Source: an uncultured Solirubrobacterales bacterium (GTDB taxonomy: Bacteria > Actinomycetota > Thermoleophilia > Solirubrobacterales > Solirubrobacteraceae). From it: a stretch of DNA of 64,000 bases. The DNA lies in NCBI GenBank assembly GCA_963756655.1, contig CAVWOQ010000038.1, positions 7,178-71,177 of the forward strand, in the 5' to 3' direction. The notes beneath the pieces are model-generated. The model did not search any database, was not told the origin of the DNA, and saw only the letters and a list, made by a program, of their open reading frames with translations. A program made the position numbers and the translations under genes. Of the stretch, positions 13,403 to 33,387 are shown in pieces; positions within the stretch are counted from its first letter, which is position 1; each line of letters opens with the position of its first letter.

Positions 13403-13426
13403 CGATGTCAGGCAACGGACCGGATC

Positions 13427-13451
13427 GTTAGTCGTCGATCGCAGCGGGTAA
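13427..13451 (+). promoter_or_regulatory. Putative SigB/SigF-type promoter GTTA-N15-GGGTAA
   Basis: 35 nt upstream of the oxidase/bc operon start. Confidence 0.5.
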
Positions 13452-13486
13452 CGGCGAAAAGCCCAGCCCATTCCGGCCCGTCGCGT

Positions 13487-16420: not shown

Positions 16421-17043
16421 TGGAGGCCTCGCCGCGGAGCGCCGTCGCCCGCACCAGCCGCAGCGCGGCCGCGGTCGCGCGCGGGAGAGTCGCGCAGCCG
16501 AGCGGCTGGTGGGGAATGGCGCTGTTCCTGTGCGCCGAGGCGTCCCTGTTCGGGATCCTGATCGCGACCTACTTCTACCTCGACTTCGACGCGCGCTCGT
16601 GGCCGCCGGACGGGATCAAGCCGCCAAGCGTGGCACTGCCGCTGGTCGCGACCGCGGTCCTGATTTCGACCACGATCCCACTGCTGCTCGCGGTGCGGGC
16701 GTCCCGTGCCGACCGGCGCTGGCGGGTCGTGGTGCTGGTGATGGTCGCCGTCGTGGTGCAGTGCTGCTACCTGGCGGTCCAGATCCTTCTGTTTCGTCAC
16801 GACCTGCGCCAGTTCTCGCCCAAGGCGACCGCCTACGGGTCGATCTACTTCACGCTGCTGGCCGCCCACCACGCGCACGTCGCGCTCGGGATCCTGCTCG
16901 AACTGGCGGTGCTGTGGCAGGTCGTGCGCAAGGGGCTGACCAACTACTGGCTGACCGGGGTCCGGATCGTGGCTCTGTACTGGTACGTGGTCTGTGGGCT
17001 GGCCGTGTTCGTCGTCCTCACTCAACTGAGCCCGACGCTATGA
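16420..17043 (+). CDS. ctaE: Cytochrome c oxidase subunit III (short, 5-TM type)
   Basis: WGMALFLCAEASLFG, WPPDG, YGSIYFTLLAAHHAHV, LYWYVV. Confidence 0.88.
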   Translation: MEASPRSAVARTSRSAAAVARGRVAQPSGWWGMALFLCAEASLFGILIATYFYLDFDARSWPPDGIKPPSVALPLVATAVLISTTIPLLLAVRASRADRRWRVVVLVMVAVVVQCCYLAVQILLFRHDLRQFSPKATAYGSIYFTLLAAHHAHVALGILLELAVLWQVVRKGLTNYWLTGVRIVALYWYVVCGLAVFVVLTQLSPTL

Positions 17044-17447
17044 CCCATAAGCTGCTGCCCTCCAACACGCTGCTGTGGTTCGGGGTGCTCGGCGGCGCCG
17101 CCGCGTGGGCGACGCAGTTCCTGGCCAACCTGTTCTTCACCTTCGCCCAGTGCGACCAGCCGGTCCAGCGGTGGATGCTGCCGGTCCACAGCTGGGAGAT
17201 CGGCCTCTCCGTGCTCGCGCTCGCCGTCGGCCTGAGCGCGACCGCGGTCTCGCTGACGATCTTCGTCCGTACCGGCCGCGTCGACGATGTCTCGGCCAAG
17301 GAACGCGAGGGCAGGGGCACGCAGCCACCGCTAGGCCGGGTCCACTTCCTGGCGATGGTCGGCCTGCTGGTGAATTTCCTCGCGCTGGCGATCATCGCCA
17401 TGACCGGCGTCGGCGCGCCCCTGCTCCCGGTCTGCCAGCAGTCATGA
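17040..17447 (+). CDS. Hypothetical membrane protein within the oxidase operon
   Basis: LLWFGVLGGAAAW..QF; three hydrophobic segments; overlapping start/stop on both sides. Confidence 0.65.
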   Translation: MTHKLLPSNTLLWFGVLGGAAAWATQFLANLFFTFAQCDQPVQRWMLPVHSWEIGLSVLALAVGLSATAVSLTIFVRTGRVDDVSAKEREGRGTQPPLGRVHFLAMVGLLVNFLALAIIAMTGVGAPLLPVCQQS

Positions 17448-18237
17448 GCCGGGTGCGGGTCGCAGCGTTGACGGTCGCGGTGATGCTGCTCGGGTCGGTC
17501 CCGATCGCCGAAGCACAGCCACAATCCGGGATCGTCCGCCCGACGACGGAGCCGCCGACGCCGAGCGTCGCGCTCGGCGCCGAGCTGTTCGCCGGAAACT
17601 GCGCGAGCTGTCACGGGATCGCCGGCTCGGGCATCTCGACGCCGCGGCCGGGCGGCGGAAACATCGTCGGCGCCGGACCGTCGCTGCACGGCGTCGGCGC
17701 GCTGGCCGCGGACTTCTACCTGCGACGCGGCTACATGCCGCTGTCGAGCATCCACGATCAGCCGTGGGACGACGCCGTTCAGTTCTCCAACAAGGAGATC
17801 AGCTCACTGACCGAGTATGTCGCCTCGCTGGGGAAGGGCCCGGCGATCCCGCGACCCAGAATCCGGGCGCCGGCAAGATCTCCGACGGACAGCAGCTGTT
17901 CAGCATGCACTGCGCCGGCTGTCATCAGATCGATGCCCGTGGCGGCTTTGTCACCGGTGCGCGGGTTCCGCCGCTGCAGAGCGTGCCGGCAACGCAGATA
18001 GCCGAGGCGGTGCGGATCGGGCCGTATCTGATGCCGCGCTTCTCGACCACGCAGATCTCGAACTCGCAGTTGAACTCAATCGTCAAGTACGTGCTGAGCA
18101 CGAATCACGTCGACAACGCCGGCGGTTGGGGGATTGGAAACATCGGCCCGATTCCGGAGGGTCTGGTCGCGTGGTGGATCGCGGCGCCGCTGCTGATCTT
18201 GTCGTGTCGGATGGTGGGGCGGAGGAGGCATAGATGA
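17444..18237 (+). CDS. qcrC: Diheme cytochrome c subunit of the bc complex (frameshift at about 17868)
   Basis: CASCH, AADFYLRRGYMP, then CAGCH, EAVRIGPYLMPRF, GGWGIGNIGPIPEGLVAW. Confidence 0.85.
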
Positions 18238-19244
18238 AGGGCTGGCAATGGTTTGTGGCACTCCTGGCCGCCTGGTGGGAGCGGCTCCGGGGAAAGGATC
18301 CGGAGCTCGCCTCGACGGTTGACGGAGAGCAAGGCCAGCGGAGGATCGTTCCGGCCGGAACGCCGCAACGGGCGGCCGAGAACGTGGTTCTCGCACTGTT
18401 CGCGATCGCGGCCCTGCTCGCGCTCGGCTTCGTGGTCGTGTACGCCGAGTTCAGCGCCACCGCGGTGCCGAACGAGCTGCTGGGGCTGTGCCTCGGCCTA
18501 TCGCTCGTGTTCATCGGCGCGGCGCTGACGGTGGTCGCAAAGCGGCTCGTGGTGACCGAGGAGCTCGAGGATGACTATCCCGAGGAGCATCCGCAGCAGC
18601 AGCAGGAGATCGCCGAGATCGTGCACGAGAGCGGCAGCCGGATCACGCGCAAGCGGCTGCTGCTCGGAGCCGGCGCGGCGACCGGCGGCGCGCTCGGGCT
18701 GGCAGCGCTGACTCCTGTGCTGTCGCTGGGTCCTGTCTGGGACACGCGGCCGCTGGACGAAACTCCGTGGCGCCGAGGGGTCCGGGTCGTCGACGTCGAC
18801 GGCGTGCCGCTGAAGGCCGCCGAGATCGAGCAGCAGACCTTTTACACGGGCTTCCCGGAGGGAGCGAACTTCGAAGACATCGCTTCACCGCTGGTGATCA
18901 TCCGGCTCGACCCCAGCAAGCTCGAGCTGCCCGCCGGGCGTGCCGACTGGGCGCCAAACGGGATCCTCGCCTACTCGAAGATCTGCACACACGCCGGCTG
19001 CGCGATCGCGCTTTATCGCAAGCCGACGTTCCCGGTGCTCGAGCCCAACAACGCGCTCGTCTGCCCGTGCCATTACTCGACCTTCGATCCGTACACGGGC
19101 GGAACGGTTACCTACGGTCCGGCCGGTCGCCCGCTGCCGCAGCTGCCGCTGATGATCGATGCCGATGGCTACCTGCGGGCGGCGGGGAACTTCTCGGCCC
19201 GGGTGGGGCCGAGCTGGTGGGCCGTGAGAGAGCGACCGGAGTGA
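18234..19244 (+). CDS. qcrA: Rieske iron-sulfur subunit
   Basis: YSKICTHAGC, CPCHYSTFD, GPAGRPLPQLP; internal ITRKRLL segment. Confidence 0.93.
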   Translation: MKGWQWFVALLAAWWERLRGKDPELASTVDGEQGQRRIVPAGTPQRAAENVVLALFAIAALLALGFVVVYAEFSATAVPNELLGLCLGLSLVFIGAALTVVAKRLVVTEELEDDYPEEHPQQQQEIAEIVHESGSRITRKRLLLGAGAATGGALGLAALTPVLSLGPVWDTRPLDETPWRRGVRVVDVDGVPLKAAEIEQQTFYTGFPEGANFEDIASPLVIIRLDPSKLELPAGRADWAPNGILAYSKICTHAGCAIALYRKPTFPVLEPNNALVCPCHYSTFDPYTGGTVTYGPAGRPLPQLPLMIDADGYLRAAGNFSARVGPSWWAVRERPE

Positions 19245-20638
19245 GCAACGAGTCGGCAGACCGTGTGCTCGATCCGGTCCGGTTCATCGACGAGCGGACC
19301 GCCGCCGCGCCGCAGATGCGTAAGTTCATGCGCTACCTGTTCCCTGACCACTGGTCGTTCCTGCTCGGCGAGGTGGCGCTGTATGCGTTCCTGGTCCTGA
19401 TTGCGACCGGGATCTACTTGGCGCTGTTCTACGACCCGAGCACCGCACAGACCGTCTACCACGGCCCGTACGCGCCACTCGACGGACAGTCGATGAGCAT
19501 GGCGTACGAGTCCGTGCTGGATCTTTCGCTGGCGACCAAGGCCGGGCTTCTGATCCGGCAGACGCATCACTGGGCCGCCGACGTGTTCATGGTCGCGATC
19601 GTCTTGCACCTGATGCGCGTGTTCTTCACGGGCGCGTTTCGCAAGCCCCGTGAATTGACCTGGCTGGTCGGGCTGCTGCTGCTGTTCACCGCGCTGTTGG
19701 AGGGCTTTCTCGGCTATTCGCTGGTCGACGATCTGCTCTCTGGCATGGGGCTCGCGATCGGCTACGGCGTCGGTCTATCAATTCCGGTGATCGGTGGCCC
19801 GATGACGCTCGCGATCTTCGGGGCGCCGTTTCCGGGCAAGCCCGACTTCTTCTCGCGGATGTACATCGCACACGTGTTCCTGCTCCCGGCTCTGCTCGCG
19901 ACGTTGATCGGGATCCATCTGGCGCTGATCATGGCCCGCCACCACACGCAGTTTCGGGAGAGCAAGCGGACGACCGAGCGACGGATCGTCGGTGTGCCGT
20001 TGTTTCCAGGCCAGGCGCCACGCTCGCTGGCGCTGATGTTCTTCACCGCCGGCCTGTTGTTCCTGCTTGGTGGGCTGGTGCAGATCAACCCGATCTGGCA
20101 GTGGGGGCCGTTCCACACGTATCTAGGGACTAACGGGGCACAGCCCGACTGGTATCTGGGATGGCTGATCGGCGCGCTACGACTGATGCCGAGCTTCGAC
20201 GTCACGATCGGCCACTTCACGCTGGTGCCTAACCCGTTCTGGGGCGGCGCCCTATTCCCGCTGTTCGTGCTCGCCGTGCTGGCGAGTTTTCCGTGGGTCG
20301 AGCGCCGTCTGAGCGGCGACCGCGGGGTCCACAACATCGCCGATCGCCCGCGCGATGCGCCGCTCCGGACCGCGTTCGGGGTCGCGTTCCTGAGCTGGGT
20401 GTTTCTGGTGTTCGTGTTCGGCGCCGCAGATCGCATGTTCGTGCTGTTCGGGCTCAGCTACAACACGCAGTTGTACGTCTTCCGGATCGGCATCTGGGTC
20501 GTGCCGTTCGTCCTGTTCTTCCTCACCCGCCGGATCTGTCGTGAGCTGCTCGCGGCCGAAGCGGTCGACGCGGTCCGTCGACAGGCCGAGCTCGAAGGAG
20601 CGGCGCACGAGCGCTCGCTGGCGGCGCACGGCAGATGA
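19241..20638 (+). CDS. qcrB: Cytochrome b subunit of the bc complex
   Basis: FPDHWSFLLGEVALY, IRQTHHWAA..LHLMRVFFTGAFRKPRE, HVFLLP..IHL, QPDWY. Confidence 0.95.
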   Translation: MSNESADRVLDPVRFIDERTAAAPQMRKFMRYLFPDHWSFLLGEVALYAFLVLIATGIYLALFYDPSTAQTVYHGPYAPLDGQSMSMAYESVLDLSLATKAGLLIRQTHHWAADVFMVAIVLHLMRVFFTGAFRKPRELTWLVGLLLLFTALLEGFLGYSLVDDLLSGMGLAIGYGVGLSIPVIGGPMTLAIFGAPFPGKPDFFSRMYIAHVFLLPALLATLIGIHLALIMARHHTQFRESKRTTERRIVGVPLFPGQAPRSLALMFFTAGLLFLLGGLVQINPIWQWGPFHTYLGTNGAQPDWYLGWLIGALRLMPSFDVTIGHFTLVPNPFWGGALFPLFVLAVLASFPWVERRLSGDRGVHNIADRPRDAPLRTAFGVAFLSWVFLVFVFGAADRMFVLFGLSYNTQLYVFRIGIWVVPFVLFFLTRRICRELLAAEAVDAVRRQAELEGAAHERSLAAHGR

Positions 20639-21519
20639 CCCACCTGGCCGAGTTCATACCGCCGCTTGGCGCAACGTTCCTTTACCTGCTTCTGTACCGC
20701 CGGCGGATGGCGACGCTCGCCGCCGAAGGCCGACCGGTCGCGCCCTGGCGAGTGGCCTCGTTCGTATGTGGCGTCGTGATGGTCGCTGCGGTACAGGTGG
20801 GGCCGTTGGACGGGCTGGCCGACACGCTGCTCGTCGCCCACATGATCCAGCACATCGTGATCGGCGACCTGGCGTCGCTGCTGATCGTGCTGGGGCTGAC
20901 CGGTCCGGTGCTCGCGCCGCTCATGCACACGAAGGCTTCGCGAGCGATGCGACGTCTGTCGCACCCGCTGGTCGCACTCACGCTGTGGGCGATTGATCTA
21001 TATGCCTGGCATCTGCCGCTCTTCTACCAGCTGGCGATCGAGCACGACCTAGTGCACGCCCTTGAGCACGCGTGCCTGCTGTGGTTCGGCTGCCTGCTGT
21101 GGCTGGCGCTAGTCGGCCCCCTCCCGAAACCCAGCTGGTTTTTGGGCTGGTGGAGCCTGGGTTATGTGATCCTGGTCCGGTTCGTCGGCGCCGTGCTCGC
21201 GAACGCACTGATCTGGGCCCAGACCGTCTTCTATCCGGTCTACCGCGCGAGCGACGCCGCGCGGGGACTGAGTCCGCTGTCGGACCAGAATCTGGCCGGC
21301 GGGGTGATGATGGTCGAGCAGGTGCTGCTGACGACGGCGCTGCTGGTCTGGCTGCTGGCCCGTCTGCTGCGCCAGGACGAGGACCGCCAGGGGCTGCTGG
21401 ATCTCGCAGCGAGTCGTGGCTTGCAACTCGACGAGGAACGCGCCGCCCGAGCCGCGCGGGCCGGTGCGACGGCCCGGATGCGCGAGCGGCTGCAGAGCGG
21501 TCCGACCGGACGTCTGTGA
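20635..21519 (+). CDS. ctaG: Cytochrome c oxidase assembly protein CtaG (caa3 type)
   Basis: AHMIQH, YAWHLP, HALEH, DQNLAGGVM. Confidence 0.85.
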   Translation: MTHLAEFIPPLGATFLYLLLYRRRMATLAAEGRPVAPWRVASFVCGVVMVAAVQVGPLDGLADTLLVAHMIQHIVIGDLASLLIVLGLTGPVLAPLMHTKASRAMRRLSHPLVALTLWAIDLYAWHLPLFYQLAIEHDLVHALEHACLLWFGCLLWLALVGPLPKPSWFLGWWSLGYVILVRFVGAVLANALIWAQTVFYPVYRASDAARGLSPLSDQNLAGGVMMVEQVLLTTALLVWLLARLLRQDEDRQGLLDLAASRGLQLDEERAARAARAGATARMRERLQSGPTGRL

Positions 21520-21532
21520 CAGAGGTCACAGT

Positions 21533-21557
21533 GTGACGTTTAGCGCTGACCGGGTAC
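21533..21557 (+). promoter_or_regulatory. Putative SigB/SigF-type promoter GTGA-N15-GGGTAC
   Basis: 10 nt upstream of ATG 21568. Confidence 0.45.
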
Positions 21558-21567
21558 GCCGTAGTAC

Positions 21568-22062
21568 ATGAACTACAACGAACGAACTTCCGGCGGAGTC
21601 ATAGGGAAAGTCGTAGGGAAGGCCAAACGGGTGCTCGGGGTCGCAGCGGACCGCGACCGACTCGCCTGCGAGGGCAGGCTGCAGGAAGCGAAGTCCGAGG
21701 CTGAGCTCGGTGCCCGGCACAGCGCGGAGCGCGCCCGCGAGCGCGAGCGGCGGGCAGCGCTGGACGCGCGGGCGGTGCAGCGCGAAGCGGATCGCACGCG
21801 CCTCGAGAACCGGGTCCTCGCCGATCAACGCGCGGCGGACATCGAGGCGATGTGGCGCCAGGAGAACGCTGACGCAGCTTTGCAGGCAGACCGGCAGCGC
21901 GCCGCCGCCGAATCCGAAGAGCGCGATCAGCACGCGGGCGCCGAGCGGTCGGTCCAGGCGGCGGAGCGGGCGAACGTGGCAGCCGCCGAAGACGCCAACC
22001 AGCTCGAGCGTGAGGCGACCGCGGCCGAGGATCGAGCGCGACGACTCGAGGAGGGCCGATGA
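21568..22062 (+). CDS. CsbD-like N-terminus followed by an A/E/R-rich coiled coil
   Basis: GKVVGKAKRVLG..DRDRLACEGRLQ resembles the CsbD pattern. Confidence 0.65.
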   Translation: MNYNERTSGGVIGKVVGKAKRVLGVAADRDRLACEGRLQEAKSEAELGARHSAERARERERRAALDARAVQREADRTRLENRVLADQRAADIEAMWRQENADAALQADRQRAAAESEERDQHAGAERSVQAAERANVAAAEDANQLEREATAAEDRARRLEEGR

Positions 22063-22688
22063 GCTCACGGACACTCACCACTGCGATGGTTGACCGCTAC
22101 CTGAGGCTGGCCCGCTGGCCCGTCGATCTGGTGACCACGGTGCTTCCCGGCACGCGTACCGGGCCGGGGACGACCGCACGATTGGTCGTCGACCGCGTCG
22201 ACGCGAGCATCCGTGCGACGCTCGCGGCCGTGCTGGGCGACGACTCACTGCGGGCAGACGCGGCACGACGCGACGCGGCCGTAGAGGAGCGAGAGCGCGC
22301 GCTCGACCTGCGCCGTGAGGCCCGTCGCCGCGCCGAGCAGAGCGAGGCTGAGCTTCGCAAACGTCACCAAGAGGCCGGTCGCCGCCGCGAGCGCGCCACC
22401 GCGAAGGCGACGCAGCAGCGGCGAGCCGCGAGTACGAGCCAGGAGCGACGCAAGAGCAACGCATCTCAGGCAGCGCGGCAGCGCGCCAAGATCAGCCAGG
22501 CGCAGCGGACGGCCAACGAGCAGCGAACTCATGAGCAACAAGCGGCGGCGGAGCTGCCGGCCGTAAAGGAGCGGGGAACGGCAGTCCGCGATCGTGAGCT
22601 CGCGGTGCACAAGCGCGACGAGGCCCAGCGTCTGGGCGAGGCGGCCGCGCGTGTGAAGGAGCAGCGCAGGCACGACGACGCTCCCTAG
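22059..22688 (+). CDS. Hypothetical A/R/Q/E-rich coiled-coil protein
   Basis: YLRLARWP..VDRVDASIR..LGDDSLRADA, then a hydrophilic helical tail; ATGA coupling to the previous gene. Confidence 0.65.
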   Translation: MSSRTLTTAMVDRYLRLARWPVDLVTTVLPGTRTGPGTTARLVVDRVDASIRATLAAVLGDDSLRADAARRDAAVEERERALDLRREARRRAEQSEAELRKRHQEAGRRRERATAKATQQRRAASTSQERRKSNASQAARQRAKISQAQRTANEQRTHEQQAAAELPAVKERGTAVRDRELAVHKRDEAQRLGEAAARVKEQRRHDDAP

Positions 22689-22716
22689 GTCCGGCAGTGG
22701 CCTGCCGCCGGGCCAA

Positions 22717-23460
22717 GTGGCGGTATCTTTGGCGCTGATGATGTCCAGCGCTGACCGTCGGCCGGTGGTGTGGAGATGGTCCGGAGCAGCGCTGCTGCCG
22801 CCGGCGGCGTTCGCGGTCCACCAGCTGCGCTTCGTGCTCGCATTCGGCAGTGGCGCGAGCGCTGAGCTGCAGCGCACGGGTCACTCGTATCTGCACTCGG
22901 TGATCCCGTGGCTGGTCGTGCTCGTGGCGCTGGTCGTCGGCATCTTTCTGCTTGCGCTTGGGCGGGCGCTCGCGGGCCAGACTTCGGCCGCCAGGTTCAC
23001 GGTCTCGTTCGCCGGCCTTTGGCTTGCGTGCGCGGCAGCGCTGGTCCTGATCTATTGCGTGCAGGAGTTCCTCGAGGGAGTCTTGGTCGTCGGCCACCCG
23101 GCCGGCCTGGTGGGAATCTTCGGCTACGGAGGCTGGTGGGCGATCCCCGTCGCCGCCTGCATAGGCCTGGTGCTGGCGGCCGTCTTCCACGGCGCCCGCT
23201 GGTTGCTCGACGAGACCGCCGCGCGGCGCCGGGTCGTGGTCGTGCGGCGCACGCCGGTCGCGCAACCTTGCTGGGAAGGCTTCTTCGCACCCGTGCCGGC
23301 CCCGCTGGCGGGCGGCTGGTCGGGACGCGGACCTCCGTGTTCAGGGAGTGGCATCGGCCTGAGTCCCGCGCCGGGACGCGCCGCTGCCAGAACCGGCACA
23401 CCCAGGGCACACCAAGCCGCTATCGACGGCGTCCTGCCGCGTGTGCATCTCCCGCCGTGA
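22717..23460 (+). CDS. His-containing membrane protein with a late RGPP motif (possible arrest-peptide-type leader)
   Basis: AFAVHQLRF, GHSYLHS, GHPAG, VFHG; SGRGPP at 23326-23337; the start may be ATG 22738. Confidence 0.65.
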   Translation: MAVSLALMMSSADRRPVVWRWSGAALLPPAAFAVHQLRFVLAFGSGASAELQRTGHSYLHSVIPWLVVLVALVVGIFLLALGRALAGQTSAARFTVSFAGLWLACAAALVLIYCVQEFLEGVLVVGHPAGLVGIFGYGGWWAIPVAACIGLVLAAVFHGARWLLDETAARRRVVVVRRTPVAQPCWEGFFAPVPAPLAGGWSGRGPPCSGSGIGLSPAPGRAAARTGTPRAHQAAIDGVLPRVHLPP

Positions 23461-23479
23461 GTGAAGGAGTTCCATCCAG

Positions 23480-24463
23480 ATGACAACGAGTGCCGCCGAC
23501 CAACGCCGGCGCACGCTCGGGAGCCGTGCAGACGCCTCACTGATCCCGAGGGCGCGCACATACTTCGCATCCGACAGTCGCGGATCGTGCAAACGGTCCT
23601 GGGAGTGATCTGGCTGCTCGACGGTGCCCTGCAGTTTCAGTCGTTCATGTACGGCAAGGGCTTCATCCATGCTTCTGACGAGCCTGACTGCTGGTCAGCC
23701 CGGCTGGATATCGAGCAGCGTCCACTGGGGCGCCAGAGCCATGCAGAGCGACCAGTTGGTCTTCAACACGCTGGCCGGTTTGACCCAGATCGCGATCGGC
23801 ATCGGGTTCCTCTATCGCCCGACCGTGAAGGTGGCGCTCGCGGTCTCGTTCGCCTGGGCGCTCGTCGTCTGGTGGTTCGGGGAGGCGTTCGGGATGCTGT
23901 TCATGAACATGGCGCAGCCGCTCACAGGCGCACCGGGTGCGGTGCTCCTGTACGCGCTCGCCGGGCTGGTCGTGTGGCCGAACGGACGTCCGGGAGGTCT
24001 GCTGGGCGTCCGCGGCGCGCGCGCCATGTGGCTGGCGCTGTGGCTGGTGATGGCGTGGCTCTGGCTGCTGGCTCCGAGCAGCAGCGCGAACGCGACGTAC
24101 ACATCGATCTACGCCGCTCCATCGGGCATGAGCTGGCTGAGCACGTTGCAGGTCTGGGCCGCCGACGCGGCCAAGGGCAACGGACTGCTGATCGCGATCG
24201 TGCTGGCGTTCGCGTCGGCGGCGATCGGGATCGCGGTCTACCGCAACTGGCACCCGCGGCCGTTCCTGCTGCTCGCCGTCGTTCTGAGTCTCGCGTACTG
24301 GGTCCTCGGCCAGGGCTTCGGCGGCATCTTCATGGGCGGCGCGACGGATCCGAATGCCGGACCGCTGTTCGTCGTGCTCGCGTACGCGATGTACGCGTTG
24401 ATCCCATTCGATAGCCGGGCGGACTCGCCGGGCGTACTGACAGCGAGGTCACAAAGTGCTTGA
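23480..24463 (+). CDS. DoxD/DoxX-like multi-pass membrane protein with internal duplication (frameshifts at about 23582 and 23668)
   Basis: AAGGAG SD 23464-23469 before ATG 23480; LGVIWLLDGALQFQ; repeated WWFGEAFG..TGAPG / YWVLGQGFG..TDPNAGPL. Confidence 0.65.
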
Positions 24464-25082
24464 CAGAACTCAACTTCGCGCCGCGCTGCTGGCCGCGGCG
24501 ACGGTCATGTTGCTCGCGGGTTGCGCGAGTGCCAACAAGACCACTTCGAGCTCGTCGGCCGCCGCCGCGGCCGGATCCGGAAGCATGGCGGGCATGAGCA
24601 GCGGCTCGGGCGCGAGCTCGAACGCCGCGATGGAGGTCGACGGGATCAAACCGATCCCGATCCAGCCGCTCGCCGTCGCGAGCTGGCAGGGGATGAAGAT
24701 CGAGGCGCGGGCGATGACCGCCGTGCCGTTCGTGGTCTTCAACGGGACCAAGGAGCAGATGGTCAAGCCCGGCCCGAAGACGAGCTTTCACCTGATGGTG
24801 ATGCTCAACGACGCCCACACCGGGGTCGCGATCCCGTACGCGAGCGTCTGGGCGACGATCACCCGCGACGGCAAGGTCGTCTACGACGAGCGCCAGTGGC
24901 CGATGCTGTCCGAGTACATGGGCCCTCACTACGGCAACAACGTCGCGCTCCCGGGAGCAGGAACCTACAAGCTCAGCCTGCTGATCAGCCCTCCGGTGTC
25001 GGCCCGGCACCTCGAGTACCAGCACGTGTGGCTGACGCCGCATCGCGTCAGCTCGAGCTTCAACTGGAAGCCGGTCTCGTGA
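24456..25082 (+). CDS. P19/Tpd (FetP)-family metal-binding lipoprotein, Met-substituted variant
   Basis: Lipobox LLAGC; FHLMVM, WPMLSEYMGPHYGNNVALPGAGTYKL..ISPP..ARH. Confidence 0.8.
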   Translation: MLDRTQLRAALLAAATVMLLAGCASANKTTSSSSAAAAAGSGSMAGMSSGSGASSNAAMEVDGIKPIPIQPLAVASWQGMKIEARAMTAVPFVVFNGTKEQMVKPGPKTSFHLMVMLNDAHTGVAIPYASVWATITRDGKVVYDERQWPMLSEYMGPHYGNNVALPGAGTYKLSLLISPPVSARHLEYQHVWLTPHRVSSSFNWKPVS

Positions 25083-26344
25083 CGCCGGAGGGCCCACGGC
25101 GAGGGCTGACCCGCCGCAAGCTGCTGATTGGCGCCGCGTCGGTGGCGGCCGGCGGCGCGGCGGTCGGCGTCGGCCTCGAACAGGCGTCGGGCGGCGCGAG
25201 CGAGCCCGAGATCCCGCGCGTTGCGCTTGGGAGCCAGCCCGCCGGGCTGCCGGCGCGCCAGCACGCCTGGACTGCGACGCTGGCGGTCGACTCTGACGGC
25301 GACTCGATCCCGCCGCGCTTTGACCGGCTCCTGTTGTTCGATGTCAACGGAACACCCACGCCCGCGCACGCGAGGCTGTTGGAAGCGTCACTGAGAACGC
25401 TCGAGCGCCGGTACAAGTGGGGTCCGTCGGGCCTGTTGTTCACGGCCGGCTGGGGGCCGAGCTACTTCGAACGCTTGCTGCGCGTACGGTCCCCGATCCC
25501 GCAGGCCAAGGGCCTGTCGGACTTCGAACTGCCGTCGATCGACGACTACCACCTGTGCCTGCACTTCGCGTGCAACGACGAGCAGCGCCTCGCGGCGATC
25601 GAAGCCGCACTACTGCACGGCGAGCCGCTCCCGGGAGCCGACGGCCCGCTCTCGATCGCCAGCGCGCTGACGTGGCGCGAAACGCGGACCGGCTTCGTCG
25701 GCGTCGGCCTACCGGCCGCGCATCAGCACACCGGCGGGATCCCGGCCGGCGATCCCGTCGCCCCGAGCGCGCCGCTGTTCATGGGCTTCAAGTCGGGCCT
25801 GCGCAAGAACCAGGCGACCGAGGACTTCGTGACGATCCCGGACGGACCGTTCGCCGGCGGCACGACGATGCAGGTCAGCTACATGCGCCTGCGACTCGAC
25901 AGCTGGTACGACGGGCTGAGCTACCGCGAGCGAGTTGCGCGGATGTACGCGCCGCAGGTCACCCCTCAGCAGGTCAAGCACTTCAAGACCGACGCCGAGA
26001 GCGACCCCAAACTGCTCGGCCAGGCGATCAACCACTACGGCGTGATCGGCCACTCGCAGACGTCGGCCCGCGCACGCCGCCACGGCAAGCCGCTGATCAT
26101 CCGCCGCGACTTCAACACCGTCGACGGCGGCCAGGCGGGGCTGCACTTCGTCTCGGTCCAGCGCACGATCGAGGACTTCGTGACGAGCCGCAACGCGATG
26201 AACGCCTCGAACGCGCAGCTCCAGAACCCTGGGATCACCAACACCGTCAACAACGGGATCAACGAATTCATCTTCGTCCTCAAGCGCGCCAACTACATCC
26301 TGCCGCGGCGCGCCGACCGTTCGTTCCCGCTGCTGCGGGCGTGA
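25079..26344 (+). CDS. Tat-exported DyP-type peroxidase-like protein
   Basis: TRRKLL + hydrophobic signal; FMGFKSG, IGHSQ, IIRRDF, GLHFVSVQR, INEFI. Confidence 0.7.
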   Translation: MTPEGPRRGLTRRKLLIGAASVAAGGAAVGVGLEQASGGASEPEIPRVALGSQPAGLPARQHAWTATLAVDSDGDSIPPRFDRLLLFDVNGTPTPAHARLLEASLRTLERRYKWGPSGLLFTAGWGPSYFERLLRVRSPIPQAKGLSDFELPSIDDYHLCLHFACNDEQRLAAIEAALLHGEPLPGADGPLSIASALTWRETRTGFVGVGLPAAHQHTGGIPAGDPVAPSAPLFMGFKSGLRKNQATEDFVTIPDGPFAGGTTMQVSYMRLRLDSWYDGLSYRERVARMYAPQVTPQQVKHFKTDAESDPKLLGQAINHYGVIGHSQTSARARRHGKPLIIRRDFNTVDGGQAGLHFVSVQRTIEDFVTSRNAMNASNAQLQNPGITNTVNNGINEFIFVLKRANYILPRRADRSFPLLRA

Positions 26345-26410
26345 TCAGTTCCAGCTCCCGCGGCGGTCTATGGATATCGACTGCGCAACGCTGGTCCCGC
26401 TGTTGACCGA

Positions 26411-26860
26411 CTACTTCGCCTGGCTCGCGCAGCTCTCGCAGAGCCCGACGATCGCGAAATGCGTGAAGCGGGCCGTGTGGCCGAAGTTGTCCTTGATGTG
26501 TTCGCGGACCGGCGCCAGCTGATCGGGGTCGAGCACCGTGACCTTGCCGCAGCGTTCGCAATAGAGGTACTCGCCGTCGTCGCGTCCGACGAGCGCGTAC
26601 AGGCCCGGCCCGTGCCCGAGGTGGACGTGGCGGATCAGACCATGGCGTTCGAGCACCTCGAGGTTGCGGTAGACAGACGACTCGTCGAGCGTCAGCGTTC
26701 GCGCCAGGTCAGGGGCCGAGACCGGGCCGTCGGTCGCGAACAGCGCCTCGATCACCAGTCGGCGTGGGGTCGACAGGCGCAGCCCAGAGGTGCGCAGCGC
26801 GTCGATCGCCTGATCGGGACTCGAGACCGCCAGCCGCGGCACGTCGGGCGCGATCGTCAC
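26411..26860 (-). CDS. nur: Fur-family regulator, most like nickel-responsive Nur
   Basis: GLRLSTPRRLV, SSVYRNLEVL, HVHLGHG, CERC, THFAIVGLCESC; start overlaps the NiCoT stop. Confidence 0.8.
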   Translation of the reverse strand: MTIAPDVPRLAVSSPDQAIDALRTSGLRLSTPRRLVIEALFATDGPVSAPDLARTLTLDESSVYRNLEVLERHGLIRHVHLGHGPGLYALVGRDDGEYLYCERCGKVTVLDPDQLAPVREHIKDNFGHTARFTHFAIVGLCESCASQAK

Positions 26861-27978
26861 GGCCCGACGCCGGGCTGTTCGAGGTGTGCACTCCAGCGCT
26901 CCTCGATCCGGCCGAGCCTCCACACCGACAGCGCGATCGCCCACGTCGCGACGAACATCCCGACGATCACGAAGCCGAGGACGTTGATGTCGATGTTCTC
27001 GAACCAGTTCCAGAACGAGCCCGACAGGTTGAGCTCCGACGCGAACAGGCCCCCGACCTCGATCGTCCCGATCACGAGCGCGACGGCGACCGATAGGCCC
27101 GTGATCGTGATGTTGTAGAAGACCTTGCGGACCGGCTTCGAAAAGGCCCAGCCGTAGGCGAAGTTCATGAACGAGCCATCGATCGAGTCCATCAGCGACA
27201 TCCCGGCGGCGAACAGGACCGGCAGGCACAGAATCGCGTACCAGGGGAGCCCGGCAGCGCCGGCGCTCCCAGCGATCACGAGCAATGCGACCTCGGTCGC
27301 GGTGTCGAACCCGAGCCCGAATAGGACTCCGATCGGGTACATCTGCTGGGGCTTGGTCACGGTCTTGGTGAGCCGGCCGAAGAAGCGGTTCATCAGCCCG
27401 CGACTGTCGAGCTGGCGCTCGAGCGCCGCCTCGTCGTAGCGGCCGGTCTTCATCTCGCGAAAGACGCGGATGATCCCGAACAGGATCACGATGTTGAGCG
27501 CGGCGATCAGGTAGAGAAACCCGCCGGAGACGCCGGTGCCGATCGAGTTGGTCGTCTGGTGAAGCGTCGAGGTGTCGTTCTTGACCGGGCCGTCGAGCGC
27601 GCGCACGCCGAGCGAGATCAGCAGCGCGAGCGCGAACACGATCGTCGAGTGCCCGAGGGAAAACCAGAACCCGACGCTCATCGGTCGCTTCCCCTCGGCC
27701 ATCAGCTTGCGGGTGGTGTTGTCGATCGCCGAGATGTGGTCGGCGTCAAACGCGTGCCGCAAACCGAGCGTGTACGCCGTGACACCGATCCCGATCGTGA
27801 ACGCGCCGGTTCTGCCGAGGTGGTAGTGGCTCGGAGCGACGACCGCGACCAGAACTACGAAGCCCGCGACGTGCAAAGCGACGACGACGAACGCCATCAT
27901 CATCATGGTCCGGCGCTGGCCGGAGTCGAGCGATCCCCAGAAGGACCTGGTCCTGCTGGCCAGCGAAGCGACCGACAA
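26857..27978 (-). CDS. High-affinity nickel/cobalt permease (NiCoT; HoxN/HupN/NixA family)
   Basis: Signature LRHAFDADHISAID, FSLGHSTIV, LFGLGFDTATE, MDSIDG. Confidence 0.95.
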   Translation of the reverse strand: MSVASLASRTRSFWGSLDSGQRRTMMMMAFVVVALHVAGFVVLVAVVAPSHYHLGRTGAFTIGIGVTAYTLGLRHAFDADHISAIDNTTRKLMAEGKRPMSVGFWFSLGHSTIVFALALLISLGVRALDGPVKNDTSTLHQTTNSIGTGVSGGFLYLIAALNIVILFGIIRVFREMKTGRYDEAALERQLDSRGLMNRFFGRLTKTVTKPQQMYPIGVLFGLGFDTATEVALLVIAGSAGAAGLPWYAILCLPVLFAAGMSLMDSIDGSFMNFAYGWAFSKPVRKVFYNITITGLSVAVALVIGTIEVGGLFASELNLSGSFWNWFENIDINVLGFVIVGMFVATWAIALSVWRLGRIEERWSAHLEQPGVGP

Positions 27979-29126: not shown

Positions 29127-29612
29127 GTGCTCCGGCGCGTGTTCGCGTTCTCTGTCTGCTGGCTGCTGGCGGCCGGGGTGTACCTGCTGCTGATCGACAT
29201 CACCGATCTGCCGGAGCTGATCGTCGGCGCCGGCGCGGCGCTGCTGGCCGCCGTTGGCTTCGAGTTGACGCGCGAGCGGGAGATCGCGGATCTGAGCACG
29301 AGGTGGCGCTGGCTGGGACGGCTCTACAGGCCGGTGCTCAAGGTTCCGTCCGATGTGCTTGCGGTGTCGCTCGTCGCCTTGCGCCAGCTCCGTCACGCGC
29401 GGGCGGTCAACGGCGAGTTTCGCGCAGTCCGCTTCCGCTGTGGCGAGGACGAGCGACTCGAGACCGGGAAGTGGGCGCTGGCGGAGTCGTTCGGGTCGTT
29501 CGCCCCGAACACGATCATCGTCGGAGTAGACCCCGAGCGCGAGCTGATCCTCGGCCATCAGCTTCGCCGCTCCGGTGCGGCTGATGCGATCGACGTGCTG
29601 GGGCTCGGATGA
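29127..29612 (+). CDS. mrpE: Mrp/Mnh antiporter subunit E-like
   Basis: N-terminal TM pair, ELIVG, SFAPNTIIVGVD..LILGH. Confidence 0.7.
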   Translation: MLRRVFAFSVCWLLAAGVYLLLIDITDLPELIVGAGAALLAAVGFELTREREIADLSTRWRWLGRLYRPVLKVPSDVLAVSLVALRQLRHARAVNGEFRAVRFRCGEDERLETGKWALAESFGSFAPNTIIVGVDPERELILGHQLRRSGAADAIDVLGLG

Positions 29613-29860
29613 ACGAGTGGCAGATCGCAGCGGCGGTGTTGGGCGCGGCATTCATCCCGTGCGTTGCAATCGCGCTGCTGGCGTCGCCGACGCATGGCCT
29701 CGCGGCCGCCGAGGTCGCCGCGGTGCTGTTGAGCACGATCCTGATGCTGCTGTCGGAGGGGTTTCACCGCCAGCCGTTCATCGATCTCGCTGTCGTGTTC
29801 GCCCCGATGTCGCTCGTCGGCTCACTGATGTTCGCGCGGCTGATGGAGCGCCACCTATGA
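29609..29860 (+). CDS. mrpF: Mrp/Mnh subunit F-like
   Basis: 83 aa, three TM helices, FIDLAVV..SLVGSLMFARLMER. Confidence 0.75.
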   Translation: MNEWQIAAAVLGAAFIPCVAIALLASPTHGLAAAEVAAVLLSTILMLLSEGFHRQPFIDLAVVFAPMSLVGSLMFARLMERHL

Positions 29861-30186
29861 GCTGGCGCGCGATCGTCGCGCTGCTCCTGCTGATCACCGG
29901 CGGCGCTCTGGAGCTGCTGGCGGTGATCGGCATGTGTGCGATGCGAGATGTCTACGACCGTCTGCACTACGTCGGGCTAGCCGGCTTCGGCGCCTTTCTG
30001 ATCTCGGCGGCGATCGTCTTTCGCGAGTCGTTTTCGCTGATCGGCGACAAGGCGCTGCTGGTGGGCGTGGTGCTGATCGTGACCGGTCCGATCCTCGTGC
30101 AGACGACGGTGCGTAGCTTCCTAATCCGCGAGCACGGCGACTGGAGGGCGAAGATCGCCGACGCCGAGCCGGAGGAGGGGCGGTGA
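29857..30186 (+). CDS. mrpG: Mrp/Mnh subunit G-like
   Basis: DVYDRLH motif, three TM helices. Confidence 0.8.
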   Translation: MSWRAIVALLLLITGGALELLAVIGMCAMRDVYDRLHYVGLAGFGAFLISAAIVFRESFSLIGDKALLVGVVLIVTGPILVQTTVRSFLIREHGDWRAKIADAEPEEGR

Positions 30187-30461
30187 CCGTGCTGCAGATC
30201 GCGGCGCTGGCGGCGGTGGCGGTCGGCGGCACCGCGGCGGTCGCGGCACGAGATCCACTGCGTCAGACGCTGGTGATCGCGATCTACGGGATGGCGCTGA
30301 CGATGCTGTTCTTCGTCTTCCAAGCGCCGGACGTAGCGCTGTCCGAGATCGTCGTGTCGAGCGTCGGTTTGCCTGTCATGGTCCTGCTCGCGCTGCGCAA
30401 GGTGCGTGAGCAGGAGCAGGAACAAGGGCGCCAGCCGCAGGACGAGCGCGAGCAAGAATGA
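30183..30461 (+). CDS. Standalone DUF4040 (MrpA C-terminal/MrpB N-terminal domain) protein
   Basis: FQAPDVALSEIVV. Confidence 0.8.
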   Translation: MTVLQIAALAAVAVGGTAAVAARDPLRQTLVIAIYGMALTMLFFVFQAPDVALSEIVVSSVGLPVMVLLALRKVREQEQEQGRQPQDEREQE

Positions 30462-31219
30462 GCCGGCGGGCCCGCCTGACGCTGTTCGCGGTCGCCGGCG
30501 CCGGATTCGGAGCGGTGCTCGTGATCGGCTTCGCGAAACTGCCGGCGTTCGGCCACTACCACGGCGTCTACGGACGGGTGCTCGATGGAGTCGGGGTCAG
30601 CCTGCGTCATGCCACTGACCTCGTGACCGGCCTCAACTTCGACTTTCGTGGCTTCGACACCCTGGGGGAGGAATTTATCCTGTTCGGATCTGTGCTTGGG
30701 GTGATCCTGATCCTGCGCGACATGCGCGAGGAGAGCGGCCCTCCCAACCGGCGCGAGGCGGACGAGCACGCTTTTGGAGGAGCGAGCGAGGCGCTGCGAG
30801 CGCTCTCGCTCGTGCTCGTCGCGGCGCTTATCGCGCTCGGGATATACATCGTCGTGCACGGGCAGCTGACGCCAGGTGGTGGCTTTCAGGGCGGGCTGAT
30901 CCTCGCCACGGCCCCGCTGGCGGTGTTCGTCGGCGGCCGCTACATCCGGATGAGGTTCGTCGCGCCGCACCTGCTGGTCGAGCTCGGCGACGCGATCGGC
31001 GCGGTCGGCTACGCGCTCGTCGGGCTCGCCGGGCTGGTGTTCGTCGGTGTGTTCTTCAAGAACTTCCTGCCGTTGGGAATACCAGGGCATCTGCTGTCGG
31101 CCGGGCAGATGGACATCGCCAGCACGGCGGTCGGGCTCGAGGTGAGCGGGGCTTTCCTGGTCGCCTGGAGCGAGTTTCTCGATCAGGCGATCCTCGTCGA
31201 GGAGGGAGAAGAGGCGTGA
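30458..31219 (+). CDS. mrpB: Mrp/Mnh subunit B
   Basis: DFRGFDTLGEEFIL, HGQLTPGGGFQGG, VGLEV. Confidence 0.88.
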   Translation: MSRRARLTLFAVAGAGFGAVLVIGFAKLPAFGHYHGVYGRVLDGVGVSLRHATDLVTGLNFDFRGFDTLGEEFILFGSVLGVILILRDMREESGPPNRREADEHAFGGASEALRALSLVLVAALIALGIYIVVHGQLTPGGGFQGGLILATAPLAVFVGGRYIRMRFVAPHLLVELGDAIGAVGYALVGLAGLVFVGVFFKNFLPLGIPGHLLSAGQMDIASTAVGLEVSGAFLVAWSEFLDQAILVEEGEEA

Positions 31220-31560
31220 GCTTCGCGCCGTTCGCGGTCGCCGCTTGGCTGTTCGTCGCCGGCCTGTACGGGGTCGTCTCGAGCCGCAACCTGATTCGGA
31301 CGATCCTGTCGCTGACGGTCGTCCAGTCGGCGACCTACCTGCTGCTGCTGGGCATCGGCTACCGCAACGGCGGGCAGGCGCCCATCTTCGCCGACATCCC
31401 GGCCGTCAGCAAAGCGGTCGATCCGGTGGTCCAGGTCCTGGTGCTGACTGACATCGTGATCGAGGCGACCGTCACGGGACTCCTGCTGGCCCTCGCGATC
31501 CAGGCGCACAAACGGTTCGGCAGCCTCGACCCGAACGACCTGCGCGCGCTGCGCGACTAG
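31216..31560 (+). CDS. mrpC: Mrp/Mnh subunit C
   Basis: SRNLIRTILSL, DPVVQVLVLTDIVI. Confidence 0.88.
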   Translation: MSFAPFAVAAWLFVAGLYGVVSSRNLIRTILSLTVVQSATYLLLLGIGYRNGGQAPIFADIPAVSKAVDPVVQVLVLTDIVIEATVTGLLLALAIQAHKRFGSLDPNDLRALRD

Positions 31561-31563
31561 CGC

Positions 31564-33387
31564 ATGCACATCACGGCGCTTCCTGTCTTGATTCCGATGA
31601 TCGGCGCTGCGATGCTGGTGGCGGTCAGACACTGGGCGCCGCGATGGTTCAACGACCTCGCCGCGACGGCGGTGGCGATGAGCGTCGTCGTGCTGTGCGC
31701 GATCCTGCTTGTCCACGCCGGGCATAACCCGTTCGCGTACTGGATGGGCGGCTGGCGGCCCAGCCACCAAGTGACGATCGGGATCTCTTTCAGTGTCGAC
31801 TCGGTCGGCGCCGGAATGGCGACCTTCTCGGCGCTGCTGGTGAGCGCGGCGTTGATCTACTCATGGCGCTACTTCGACTCCGCCGACGGGCTGTTCCACG
31901 CCCTGATGCTCGTGTTCCTGGCGGCGGTCGTTGGCTTCTCGCTGACCGGGGATCTGTTCAACCTGGTCGTTTTCTTTGAGCTGATGGGGGCGGTCGCCTA
32001 CGCTCTGACCGCTTACAAGATCGAGGAACGGGGCCCGATTCAGGGCGCGATCAACTTCGCGATCTCCAACAGCATCGGCGCGTACGCGATCTTCATCGGC
32101 GTCGGCCTCCTGTATGCCCGGACCGGGGCGCTCAACATGGCCCAGATCGGCAAGACGCTCGATGGCCACCCGGCCGACCCGCTGGTCGTGCTCGCGCTGA
32201 CGCTCCTGTTCGCGGGCTTTTTGACCAAAGCGGCTGTCGTCCCAATGCACTTCTGGCTCGCCGACGCGCACGCCGTCGCCCCAACGCCCGTCTGTGTCCT
32301 GTTCTCGGGAGTGATGGTCGAGCTCGGGATCTACGCGATCGCCCGCCTCTACTGGGCGATCTTCGCGGGCGCGATCGGCCCGCACGAGTTCCAGCTGCGC
32401 GCGATCCTGATCGCGTTCGGGACCGTCACTGCGCTCTGGGGGGCCGTGATGTGCTTTTCGCAACGCCACATCAAGAGGCTGCTGGCGTTCTCGACCATCA
32501 GCCACGTCGGAATGTTCGTCTGCGGGCTCGGGCTGCTGAGCGCTAAGGGGCTCGCGGGTGTCGCCACCTACGTGGTCGGGCATGGCTTGACCAAGGCCGC
32601 GCTGTTCATGCTCACAGGGGTCCTGCTGCACCGTTTCGGGACGGTCGACGAGTTCGACCTGCATGGCCGCGGCCGGGAGCTGCGCGTCGTCGGCGTGCTG
32701 TTCGCGCTCGGCGGACTGATGCTCGCGGCGCTGCCGGTGGTGACTGAGTTCTTCGGCAAGTCGCTGCTCGACGGCGCAGCTATTGACGCCAACTACGGGT
32801 GGCTGCTGGCCGTGTTCGTGATCGCGTCGATGCTCACCGGAGGGGCAGTGCTGCGCGTGGCCGGTCGCGTCTTCTGGGGCTGGGGTCCGGCTGTCGGCGG
32901 TGACGACGGACAGCAGGAGCGCGTCGCGAGGGTGCAGGACGAGGAGCGCGGCGCGGCTGGGTGGACACCGCCGTTGATGGTGATCGTGCCCGCGACGCTG
33001 CTATTGGCCGCGATCGTGGTCGGCCTGATTCCGGGCGCCGTGCCCGCGATCGAGCGCGCGGCTGACCAGTTCCACGATCATCGCGCCTACGTGGGTTGGG
33101 TGCTAACCGGGCGGCGGCCGCACTTCGGCAACGTCGCGACGAGCCACGTCGAGGCGTACGACTACCTCTACGCGGCCGGGGCGAGCCTCGGGGCGGTAGC
33201 GCTGGCAGCTCTGGGACTGTTCGGACGGCCGTTGCGCGATCGCCTGCCGGGCGTCCTCATCCGGCCGGTTGTCGCAAGCGTCGATCGGCTGCGGTCACTG
33301 CACAGCGGCCACATCGGCGACTACATCGCCTGGTGGACGACCGGTGCCGCGTTGCTCGGCGGCGCCTCGATGCTGCTGCTGACATGA
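31564..33387 (+). CDS. mrpD: Mrp/Mnh subunit D (complex I subunit 5 family)
   Basis: TGDLFNLVVFFELM, TKAAVVPMHFWLADAHAVAPTP, KRLLAFSTISHVG, HGLTKAALF. Confidence 0.88.
   Translation: MHITALPVLIPMIGAAMLVAVRHWAPRWFNDLAATAVAMSVVVLCAILLVHAGHNPFAYWMGGWRPSHQVTIGISFSVDSVGAGMATFSALLVSAALIYSWRYFDSADGLFHALMLVFLAAVVGFSLTGDLFNLVVFFELMGAVAYALTAYKIEERGPIQGAINFAISNSIGAYAIFIGVGLLYARTGALNMAQIGKTLDGHPADPLVVLALTLLFAGFLTKAAVVPMHFWLADAHAVAPTPVCVLFSGVMVELGIYAIARLYWAIFAGAIGPHEFQLRAILIAFGTVTALWGAVMCFSQRHIKRLLAFSTISHVGMFVCGLGLLSAKGLAGVATYVVGHGLTKAALFMLTGVLLHRFGTVDEFDLHGRGRELRVVGVLFALGGLMLAALPVVTEFFGKSLLDGAAIDANYGWLLAVFVIASMLTGGAVLRVAGRVFWGWGPAVGGDDGQQERVARVQDEERGAAGWTPPLMVIVPATLLLAAIVVGLIPGAVPAIERAADQFHDHRAYVGWVLTGRRPHFGNVATSHVEAYDYLYAAGASLGAVALAALGLFGRPLRDRLPGVLIRPVVASVDRLRSLHSGHIGDYIAWWTTGAALLGGASMLLLT

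Follow-up and report, generated by a model that had tools for sequence, protein, structure and literature searches.

P19 and FetP are the textbook copper-dependent components of iron uptake, and the permease FTR1 is the obligatory partner of canonical P19. The Mn/Fe site of P19 consists of Glu3, Glu44, Asp46 and Asp92 and lies about 7 Å from the copper (PMC9174327). Proteins of the PCuAC/ECuC family (PF04314) are extracytoplasmic Cu(I) chaperones that partner Sco in the assembly of CuA and often carry an unstructured Met/His-rich extension (PMC9145763); their gene adjoins sco (PMC9145763, PMC4736821). In Streptomyces lividans the corresponding operon reads sco-ecuc-SLI_4212-dtpA, where SLI_4212 is a putative Cu transporter and dtpA encodes a dye-decolorizing peroxidase (DyP) exported by the twin-arginine translocation (Tat) pathway; DtpA has been proposed to oxidize Sco-bound Cu(I), and EfeB has been shown to act on Fe(II) (PMC4736821). 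Here we describe a gene at positions 24456-25082 (plus strand) of a 64,000-nucleotide stretch of an uncultured Solirubrobacterales bacterium, called the window below (assembly GCA_963756655.1, contig CAVWOQ010000038.1, positions 7,178 to 71,177 of the forward strand). It encodes a P19-fold lipoprotein of the DUF7350 family that retains the copper-ligand positions of P19 and has methionine at its acidic iron positions. By analogy with PCuAC/ECuC, the lipoprotein is probably an extracytoplasmic Cu(I)-handling protein that would feed cuproenzyme assembly.

Results of homology searches place the lipoprotein firmly among the relatives of P19. It matches Pfam PF10634 (Iron_transport, P19/FetP) with 37.8 bits (cut-off 21, E=2.7e-9) and PF24041 (DUF7350) with 34.9 bits (cut-off 27); nearly all of its homologues carry the latter annotation too. 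A profile of 27 homologues run against the sequences of the protein data bank (PDB) retrieves Brucella FtrA (8vv5; E=5.6e-10) and E. coli FetP (3nrp; E=2.6e-7), as well as C. jejuni P19 (3lzl) and Tp34. A canonical reference set of seven P19-type genes was taken from plasmid records and comprises E. coli FetP, Brucella FtrA and five homologues from Azospirillum, Pasteurella, Sinorhizobium, Vibrio and Fusobacterium; hhalign aligns the family profile with these seven proteins over 122 columns (probability 97.1%, E=5e-11). The AlphaFold2 model, computed with 114 homologues, has a mean predicted local distance difference test (pLDDT) score of 76.5, with most of the folded core above 90. When this model is compared with the PDB by Foldseek, the best 27 matches are all FetP, FtrA-P19, Tp34 or HftA (E from 3.6e-9; target-normalised template-modelling (TM) score 0.58-0.74), in agreement with a predicted P19-type β-sandwich; FetP and FtrA themselves give TM scores of 0.62-0.74 at E of about 1e-8 to 1e-7. 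Matches beyond these 27 are either very weak or to unrelated structures; CrdA, a copper-resistance protein of H. pylori, comes at E=1.6e-3. The alignment with P19/FetP proposed in a preliminary description of the locus is thus reproduced by hidden Markov model (HMM), profile-profile and fold comparison. The homology is well beyond chance, and the lipoprotein belongs to the P19 superfamily both by structure and by descent.

The open reading frame (ORF) starts with GTG, encodes 208 residues and is preceded by a GAGG Shine-Dalgarno ribosome-binding site 7 nt 5' of the start; its GC content at third codon positions (0.91) is as expected of real genes, the window having 69% GC. In the AlphaFold2 model an N-terminal signal helix spans residues 4-20. 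The lipobox LLAGC occupies residues 19-23, and its L-A-G-C core (residues 20-23; 24513-24524) ends in Cys23, the predicted lipidated N terminus; Gly22 and Cys23 are invariant in the 114 homologues, and the sequence fits the lipobox pattern [LVI][ASTVI][GAS]C of bacterial lipoprotein signal peptides. A Ser/Ala/Gly tether follows, predicted to be disordered (residues 22-60, pLDDT below 50), which bears the Met motif GSMAGMSS (residues 41-48; 24576-24599). The family consensus is SMAGMNMG, and conservation of the tether methionines reaches at least 90% at M44, at M47 and, in most homologues, at M49 (family motif M-A-G-M-N-M). The domain beyond the tether is β-rich. The proteins of the P19/FetP/FtrA group (PF10634; 3lzl, 3nrp, 8vv5, 7r4v) share with it the extracytoplasmic location and the GPHYG core motif, whereas the lipoprotein anchor and the long Met-bearing tether set the window protein apart.

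The predicted metal site is carried by three further motifs, each found, like GSMAGMSS, in the ORF at the place given in the preliminary description: the FHLMVM strand (residues 111-116; 24786-24803), the WPMLSEYMGPHYG loop (residues 148-160; 24897-24935) and ARHLE (residues 183-187; 25002-25016). Residue equivalences were taken from hhalign against canonical P19, supplemented by HMM alignments, and are given in FetP numbering with the P19 numbering, two lower, in brackets. Retention of the four copper ligands had been proposed before, and in our alignments H112 indeed corresponds to FetP H44 (P19 H42), M150 to M90 (M88), H158 to H97 (H95) and H185, within R184-H185, to the histidine of FetP R126-H127 (H132 in P19). 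The claim that acidic iron positions have become Met also stands, except that they had been counted as two and the alignment yields three: M114 replaces E46 (E44), M116 replaces D48 (D46) and M155 replaces D94 (D92), so that the acidic Fe/Mn site of P19 is lost at these positions. In addition, a one-residue insertion precedes GPHYG relative to canonical P19, and W148 takes the place of a canonical Met, that of F-M-P-M. For Glu3 no alignable equivalent was found, the hhalign alignment covering nothing before residue 78; the candidate position 60 is Glu in the window protein and unconserved among homologues. An equivalence through EVDGIKP and EVPIGDP, a likeness by eye only, was dropped as evidence.

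The third motif was initially paired by HMMER with 'NQHAH' of FtrA, a register that gave way to the canonical RH-x-D once the seven canonical sequences had been aligned. E187 then aligns with FetP D129, the Asp of RH-x-D, and because of this correspondence it is read as inherited, with no compensating novelty. In P19, His132 is donated by the partner subunit. Its equivalent H185 is probably donated across a putative dimer as well, and its conservation is consistent with a homodimer that receives one ligand from the partner subunit. The preliminary description had also considered that the neighbouring acidic residues of SEY and LND might rebuild the iron site. Glu153 of SEY can be set aside, as it belongs to the one-residue insertion and varies (E/A/R); Asp119 of LND may reach the metal. 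D119, located where the ligand strand ends, never varies in the core clade and is kept by nearly all distant relatives; it may contribute to a mixed Met/His/carboxylate site.

These substitutions are the mark of a large family. A word-indexed search returns more than 1800 homologue clusters at 90% identity, an exhaustive search of 50%-identity representatives gives 300 matches (E up to 0.001), and a one-genome-per-species scan finds the gene in at least 167 genomes, nearly all of them soil metagenome-assembled genomes (MAGs) of Solirubrobacterales or Conexibacteraceae. In 120 close (core) homologues, H112, M114, M150, S152, M155 and H158 are all invariant, M116 is present in 110 and H185 in 119. 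Among 145 relatives below 45% identity, which include Patulibacter proteins and two-domain, Tat-signal haloarchaeal proteins, H112 and H158 are each kept in 141, M150 in 140 and M114 in 138, that is in 95-97%, and Trp or Tyr occupies position 148 in 140. Position 116 is variable in this set; position 155 holds Met in 103 relatives, Val in 33 and an acidic residue in none. From these alignments we derived the signature H-x-M ... [WY]-P-M-x-[SG]-x-x-[MV]-G-x-H, which the window protein carries and which, judged from sequence, is a clade-defining remodelling of the P19 site that coincides with Pfam DUF7350. Because H112, M114, M150 and H158 persist at such distances, the Met trait is family-defining and, on these alignments, marks an uncharacterised family rather than a local oddity. 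No literature on either DUF family came to light in open-access text searched for DUF7350, DUF7405 (see below) and PF10634/P19 in combination with methionine or copper. Some relatives (P0010, P0121 and P0122) are tandem two-domain proteins whose first domain keeps the H-x-M / WPM / MGPHYG signature. Ligands are missing from the second domain (for instance FYLMVML and EPTISAFDGPYYG in P0010 and P0122, with His replaced by Tyr and the ligand Met by Thr), and this domain looks like a degenerate duplicate.

The genes that accompany the family were counted in 80 species-level loci, and Pfam families were surveyed in 264 flanking ORFs from 44 loci, in two sets. A DUF7405 gene stands directly 3' of the lipoprotein gene in 74 of the 80 loci; two membrane proteins, of about 336 and 203 aa in the window and usually encoded 5' of the lipoprotein gene, recur in 66 and 53 loci, respectively. 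Sco is encoded within 10 kb in 56 loci (55 of these 56 matches have the CxxxC motif) and within 5 kb in 48, on the same strand in 36 of them, while a thioredoxin-like domain occurs in 30 loci and CtaG in 14. In the Pfam survey, which was unbiased, SCO1-SenC is the most recurrent family (23 ORFs), followed by thioredoxin-fold families, which Sco also matches; also recurrent are extracytoplasmic function (ECF) sigma factors (9), Caa3_CtaG (7), DUF1775/YcnI (3) and CopC (2). The DUF7350-DUF7405 pair is found again in Patulibacter defluvii, in another MAG and in a Haloterrigena archaeon.

In the window itself the gene lies 3' of an operon for respiratory enzymes and their assembly. The plus strand shows, in order, COX2, COX1, COX3, cytochrome c, Rieske, cytochrome b, CtaG, two small genes and a cluster of four genes, namely those of the two membrane proteins, the lipoprotein and DUF7405. 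COX2, which has a complete CuA motif (ligand pattern VIHSF...CSQFCGLQHAHM) and a fused cytochrome c domain, and COX1 (together 13487-16420, plus strand, identified by Pfam) belong to a caa3-type oxidase that is the likely copper client in this genome. The Caa3_CtaG cytochrome-oxidase assembly factor is encoded at 20635-21519 on the same strand (PF09678, E=1.4e-43), and from it to the end of the cluster the genes overlap or are separated by about 50 nt or less. The stop of the 336-aa membrane protein gene overlaps the lipoprotein start by 8 nt, and the lipoprotein stop overlaps the GTG start of DUF7405 (GTGA); both overlaps suggest translational coupling. Operon boundaries are read from gene spacing, since a promoter/terminator scan of 13000-27000 gave nothing above shuffled expectation.

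Homologues are at present annotated automatically as 'iron transporter / Fe2+ transport protein', and the lipoprotein could be conceived as an iron/manganese uptake component of the P19/EfeO type, with the DyP-like DUF7405 protein acting as EfeB and the two membrane proteins replacing FTR1. In favour of such a role, the protein belongs to PF10634 and keeps the copper site, which is needed for iron transport by P19/FetP according to Chan et al. 2020, as that work is cited in PMC10783030. EfeUOB has a similar combination of a lipoprotein, a Tat-exported DyP and a membrane protein (PMC4736821), some loci have a Fur-family regulator nearby (window 26411-27229; L004), and D119 and E187 are conserved carboxylates. 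However, the three alignable acidic Fe/Mn ligands are replaced by thioether or aliphatic side chains across the family. Methionine coordinates Fe(II), Fe(III) and Mn(II) poorly, which weighs against an iron or manganese site. The canonical P19 controls that were fetched adjoin FTR1 permeases and are linked to cupredoxin and polyferredoxin genes, whereas the window family is linked to DUF7405, Sco and CtaG. No iron-uptake family, FTR1 included, is among the 25 most frequent families of either flanking-ORF set, FTR1 is missing from the Pfam annotations of eleven neighbourhoods of the lipoprotein family, and a scan of 88 loci and the window for ORFs with two REXXE motifs found none except a transaldolase. 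Siderophore families do not recur in the flanks either; copper-assembly genes are found there instead. The Fur-like gene of the window is paired with an opposite-strand gene for a NicO Ni/Co transporter, not with the cluster. EfeUOB/FepABC follow a comparable logic, combining a metal-binding lipoprotein outside the cytoplasm with a DyP peroxidase exported by Tat and one or more membrane components, but the window module lacks EfeU/FTR1 as well as any EfeO M75 or cupredoxin domain, and shows a predicted soft-ligand site and a copper-related neighbourhood. An iron or manganese uptake role is therefore, in our judgement, quite improbable.

A copper rather than an iron role is supported, as far as sequence comparison can tell, because the Met substitutions are conserved family-wide with position 155 never acidic, because FTR1 is absent from every neighbourhood examined, and because the recurrent neighbours handle copper (Sco, Caa3_CtaG, YcnI/DUF1775 and CopC, together with the CuA oxidase operon of the window). 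As two hallmarks of P19/FetP, the acidic iron site and the linkage to FTR1, both fail, the lipoprotein should not be filed as an 'iron transporter'.

The most constant partner, DUF7405, is encoded at 25079-26344 on the plus strand (PF24152, E=9e-98) and carries a Tat signal whose RR motif is invariant. Weak Dyp_perox_C matches are seen in 23 of 28 DUF7405 members (best E=1.4e-4), and all top 50 Foldseek matches of its model are DyP-type peroxidases, including S. coelicolor SCO3963 (DtpA type, 4gt2), EfeB and DtpAa. Sequence searches of the PDB with phmmer and with the family profile returned nothing meaningful. The invariant columns include G-F-K-S-G, H324 and R341/R342. We take G-F-K-S-G to be the counterpart of the DyP GXXDG motif, in which the distal Asp has become an invariant Ser, and H324 and R341/R342 in RR(D)F are presumably the candidate proximal His and distal Arg. 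Catalysis by DUF7405, if any, may differ from that of classical DyPs.

A partner from the DyP/EfeB superfamily, conserved His and Met pairs usable as axial ligands, and cytochrome and oxidase genes nearby would all be compatible with a lipoprotein that binds haem or another tetrapyrrole and exchanges it with the DyP-like protein, in the manner of an EfeB-type deferrochelatase or haem module. This we consider highly improbable: every P19-fold protein among the PDB matches is a complex of Cu, Fe or Ni and none is a haem protein, the conserved residues fall exactly on the known copper site and outline no new pocket, and the neighbours Sco, YcnI and CopC favour copper, whereas families of cytochrome c maturation or haem uptake do not recur.

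If the metal is copper, the lipoprotein might also serve detoxification of copper (or silver), as a periplasmic-type sponge or buffer for Cu(I) comparable to CusF, PcoC/CopC or PcoE, with the DyP-like partner oxidizing Cu(I) to Cu(II). The Met/His/Trp-rich site and the MxxMxM tether resemble the Cu(I) resistance proteins CusF and CopC, and oxidation of Cu(I) to the less toxic Cu(II) is a known activity of multicopper oxidases. The weak fold match to CrdA, the presence of CopC and YcnI near a few loci, and a P-type ATPase with an ArsR-type regulator near one distant member agree with such a function. CusF, CopC/PcoC and CrdA combine thioether and His ligands with a neighbouring Trp on a small β protein, as the window protein may do; in contrast to them, the latter has no sequence homologue in this group and no linkage to efflux pumps, and it keeps a second, P19-type His3Met site. 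The recurrent neighbours, moreover, belong to cofactor assembly (Sco, thioredoxin-like proteins, CtaG, the COX operon), and sets of CopA, CsoR, multicopper oxidase or RND efflux genes are not among the most frequent flanking families. The gene occurs in at least 167 species-level genomes belonging to a single order, with its chromosomal position and its partners both stable, which suits a housekeeping function better than accessory resistance, and we consider detoxification unlikely. Of the two functions offered in the preliminary description, 'chaperone' is better supported by the sequence and neighbourhood data than 'scavenger'.

Several observations nevertheless weigh against a copper-delivery role. 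The window contains no Sco, as judged by tblastn with orthologous Sco over its 64 kb, and 24 of the 80 loci have none within 10 kb. Canonical FetMP clusters also hold thioredoxin-like genes (PMC10783030), so that thioredoxin neighbours alone are not copper-specific. D119 is nearly universal and E187 highly conserved, and at least one carboxylate may reach the site. The DUF7405 model, finally, is of low confidence (pLDDT 55), and the kinship of DUF7405 with DyPs is read from weak Pfam matches and from the Foldseek comparison of this model.

With these points taken into account, delivery of Cu(I) remains the function we favour, and the closest functional parallels are PCuAC/ECuC and B. subtilis CtaK, which are likewise small extracytoplasmic β-sandwiches with a His/Met ligand set. 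They belong to another fold family with no homology to the window protein, and the likeness is positional and chemical only. Indeed, the lipoprotein has no PF04314 match (E up to 0.1) and lacks the H(M)X10MX21HXM motif. The S. lividans sco operon offers the same parts: besides Sco, a lipoprotein that binds copper, a putative copper transporter in the membrane and a DyP-type protein exported by Tat. Except for Sco the parts differ, in that the window family uses a P19 fold instead of PCuAC, two membrane proteins instead of the CopCD-like SLI_4212, and a divergent DUF7405 (GFKSG for GXXDG) instead of a class-A DyP.

The larger of the two membrane proteins (about 336 aa; 23480-24463, plus strand) was delineated by tblastn with orthologues and by translation, its gene being split in the window by two compensating single-base indels. 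A base is missing near 23580 and an extra base is present near 23670, and between these sites the conserved reading IVQTVLGVIWLLDGALQFQSFMYGKGFI continues in another frame. In a sister assembly (L005; 98.8% identical) the frame is intact at both sites, and an indel of its own occurs at 24187; over 11.9 kb the two assemblies differ by 17 indels. A real frameshift or pseudogene is unlikely, given the intact frame of the sister assembly at both sites and the different indels elsewhere, and the pattern points to long-read assembly errors rather than biology. Searched against Pfam (E up to 1) and, as a profile, against the PDB, this protein gave noise only, with a faint DoxX_3 match in 3 of 33 members. 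The smaller, His-rich membrane protein (about 203 aa; 22816-23460, plus strand), identified by tblastn and family alignment, shows the motifs HQLRY, GHSYLHS, QEFLEG, GHP, GGWW and GWSGRGPP. It has no significant Pfam match and an NCBIfam match at chance level only, and the part of its gene encoding the C terminus is likewise affected by indels (23344, 23420-23424, 23470).

Other features surround the cluster. On its 5' side, the ORFs for Rieske (18234-19244) and cytochrome b (18767-20638) lie in different frames and overlap; one extra C in the sister assembly, at window position 19167, joins them into an 801-aa QcrA-QcrB fusion, and a gene for such a fused Rieske-cytochrome b protein, split in the window by an indel, is probably present in the genome. 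Between CtaG and the cluster, positions 21568-22688 encode two small charged Ala/Arg/Glu-rich proteins of 164 aa (with a weak CsbD-like match) and 209 aa; at the locus of the closest related species (L006), CtaG is only about 1.6 kb 5' of the P19-like gene. On the 3' side, the minus strand carries the Fur-family regulator (a 148-aa gene in L005, within window ORF 26411-27229) and the NicO-type Ni/Co transporter (26857-27978), which converge on the cluster end and are probably an unrelated nickel or cobalt uptake unit. Further downstream, at 29127-33387, lies a Mrp/Mnh-type cation/proton antiporter operon, recognized from the annotation of the sister contig (MrpF, MnhG, MbhD, MnhB, Oxidored_q2 and Proton_antipo_M). 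Among relatives, genes for ECF sigma factors (Sigma70_r2 / r4_2) are found near the cluster in 9 of the 44 loci (flanks of L042-L066 and L006-L025), and regulation of the module by them is possible. In two haloarchaeal loci (L088 and L097) a DUF2243 membrane protein on the opposite strand flanks the DUF7350 gene and DUF7405 is not there; in L097 the DUF7350 gene is apparently split into two calls, a PF10634 part and a PF24041 part.

Taken as a mechanism, a lipid-anchored carrier of the P19 fold would keep the His3Met copper site (H112, M150, H158 and H185), and its former Fe/Mn carboxylate pocket would be relined with the thioethers of M114, M116 and M155 and with W148. The Met/Trp-lined pocket beside the copper centre, together with the MxxMxM motif of the tether, may form a soft-metal site that binds Cu(I). 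The lipoprotein and DUF7405, which is presumably coupled to it in translation, exported by Tat and putatively haem-binding, would form an obligate pair; by analogy with EfeB and DtpA, DUF7405 may alter the oxidation state of the carrier-bound metal. The two membrane proteins might move copper across the membrane or anchor the complex, which is a guess. The direction of transfer would be from this module to Sco and to the CuA/CuB centres of the oxidase, the task of PCuAC/ECuC or CtaK elsewhere. Our broader proposal, more tentative than a Cu(I)-handling role for the lipoprotein itself and in our view possible though rather less than an even bet, is that DUF7350 and DUF7405, with the two membrane proteins in Thermoleophilia, constitute an unrecognised bacterial and archaeal copper-trafficking module, an 'EfeUOB/FetMP retooled for copper', in which the DyP-like protein would redox-cycle copper on a two-site carrier (His3Met and Met3/Trp) for hand-over to Sco and CuA/CuB in place of PCuAC.

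The sister family to P19/FetP described here spans more than 1800 clusters and at least 167 soil Thermoleophilia species, and extends to haloarchaea. If the copper reading is true, a single scaffold would have been re-specified from iron to copper, the automatic naming of these proteins as iron or Fe2+ transporters would have to be corrected, and DUF7350, DUF7405 and two membrane-protein families outside Pfam would receive their first functional hypotheses. For Streptomyces DtpA it has been suggested that DyP-type proteins act on copper bound to a chaperone, and the module lends itself naturally to testing this idea. In a soil lineage that is abundant and poorly studied, the lipoprotein would fill the vacant place of the 'small copper-binding protein' of CuA assembly.

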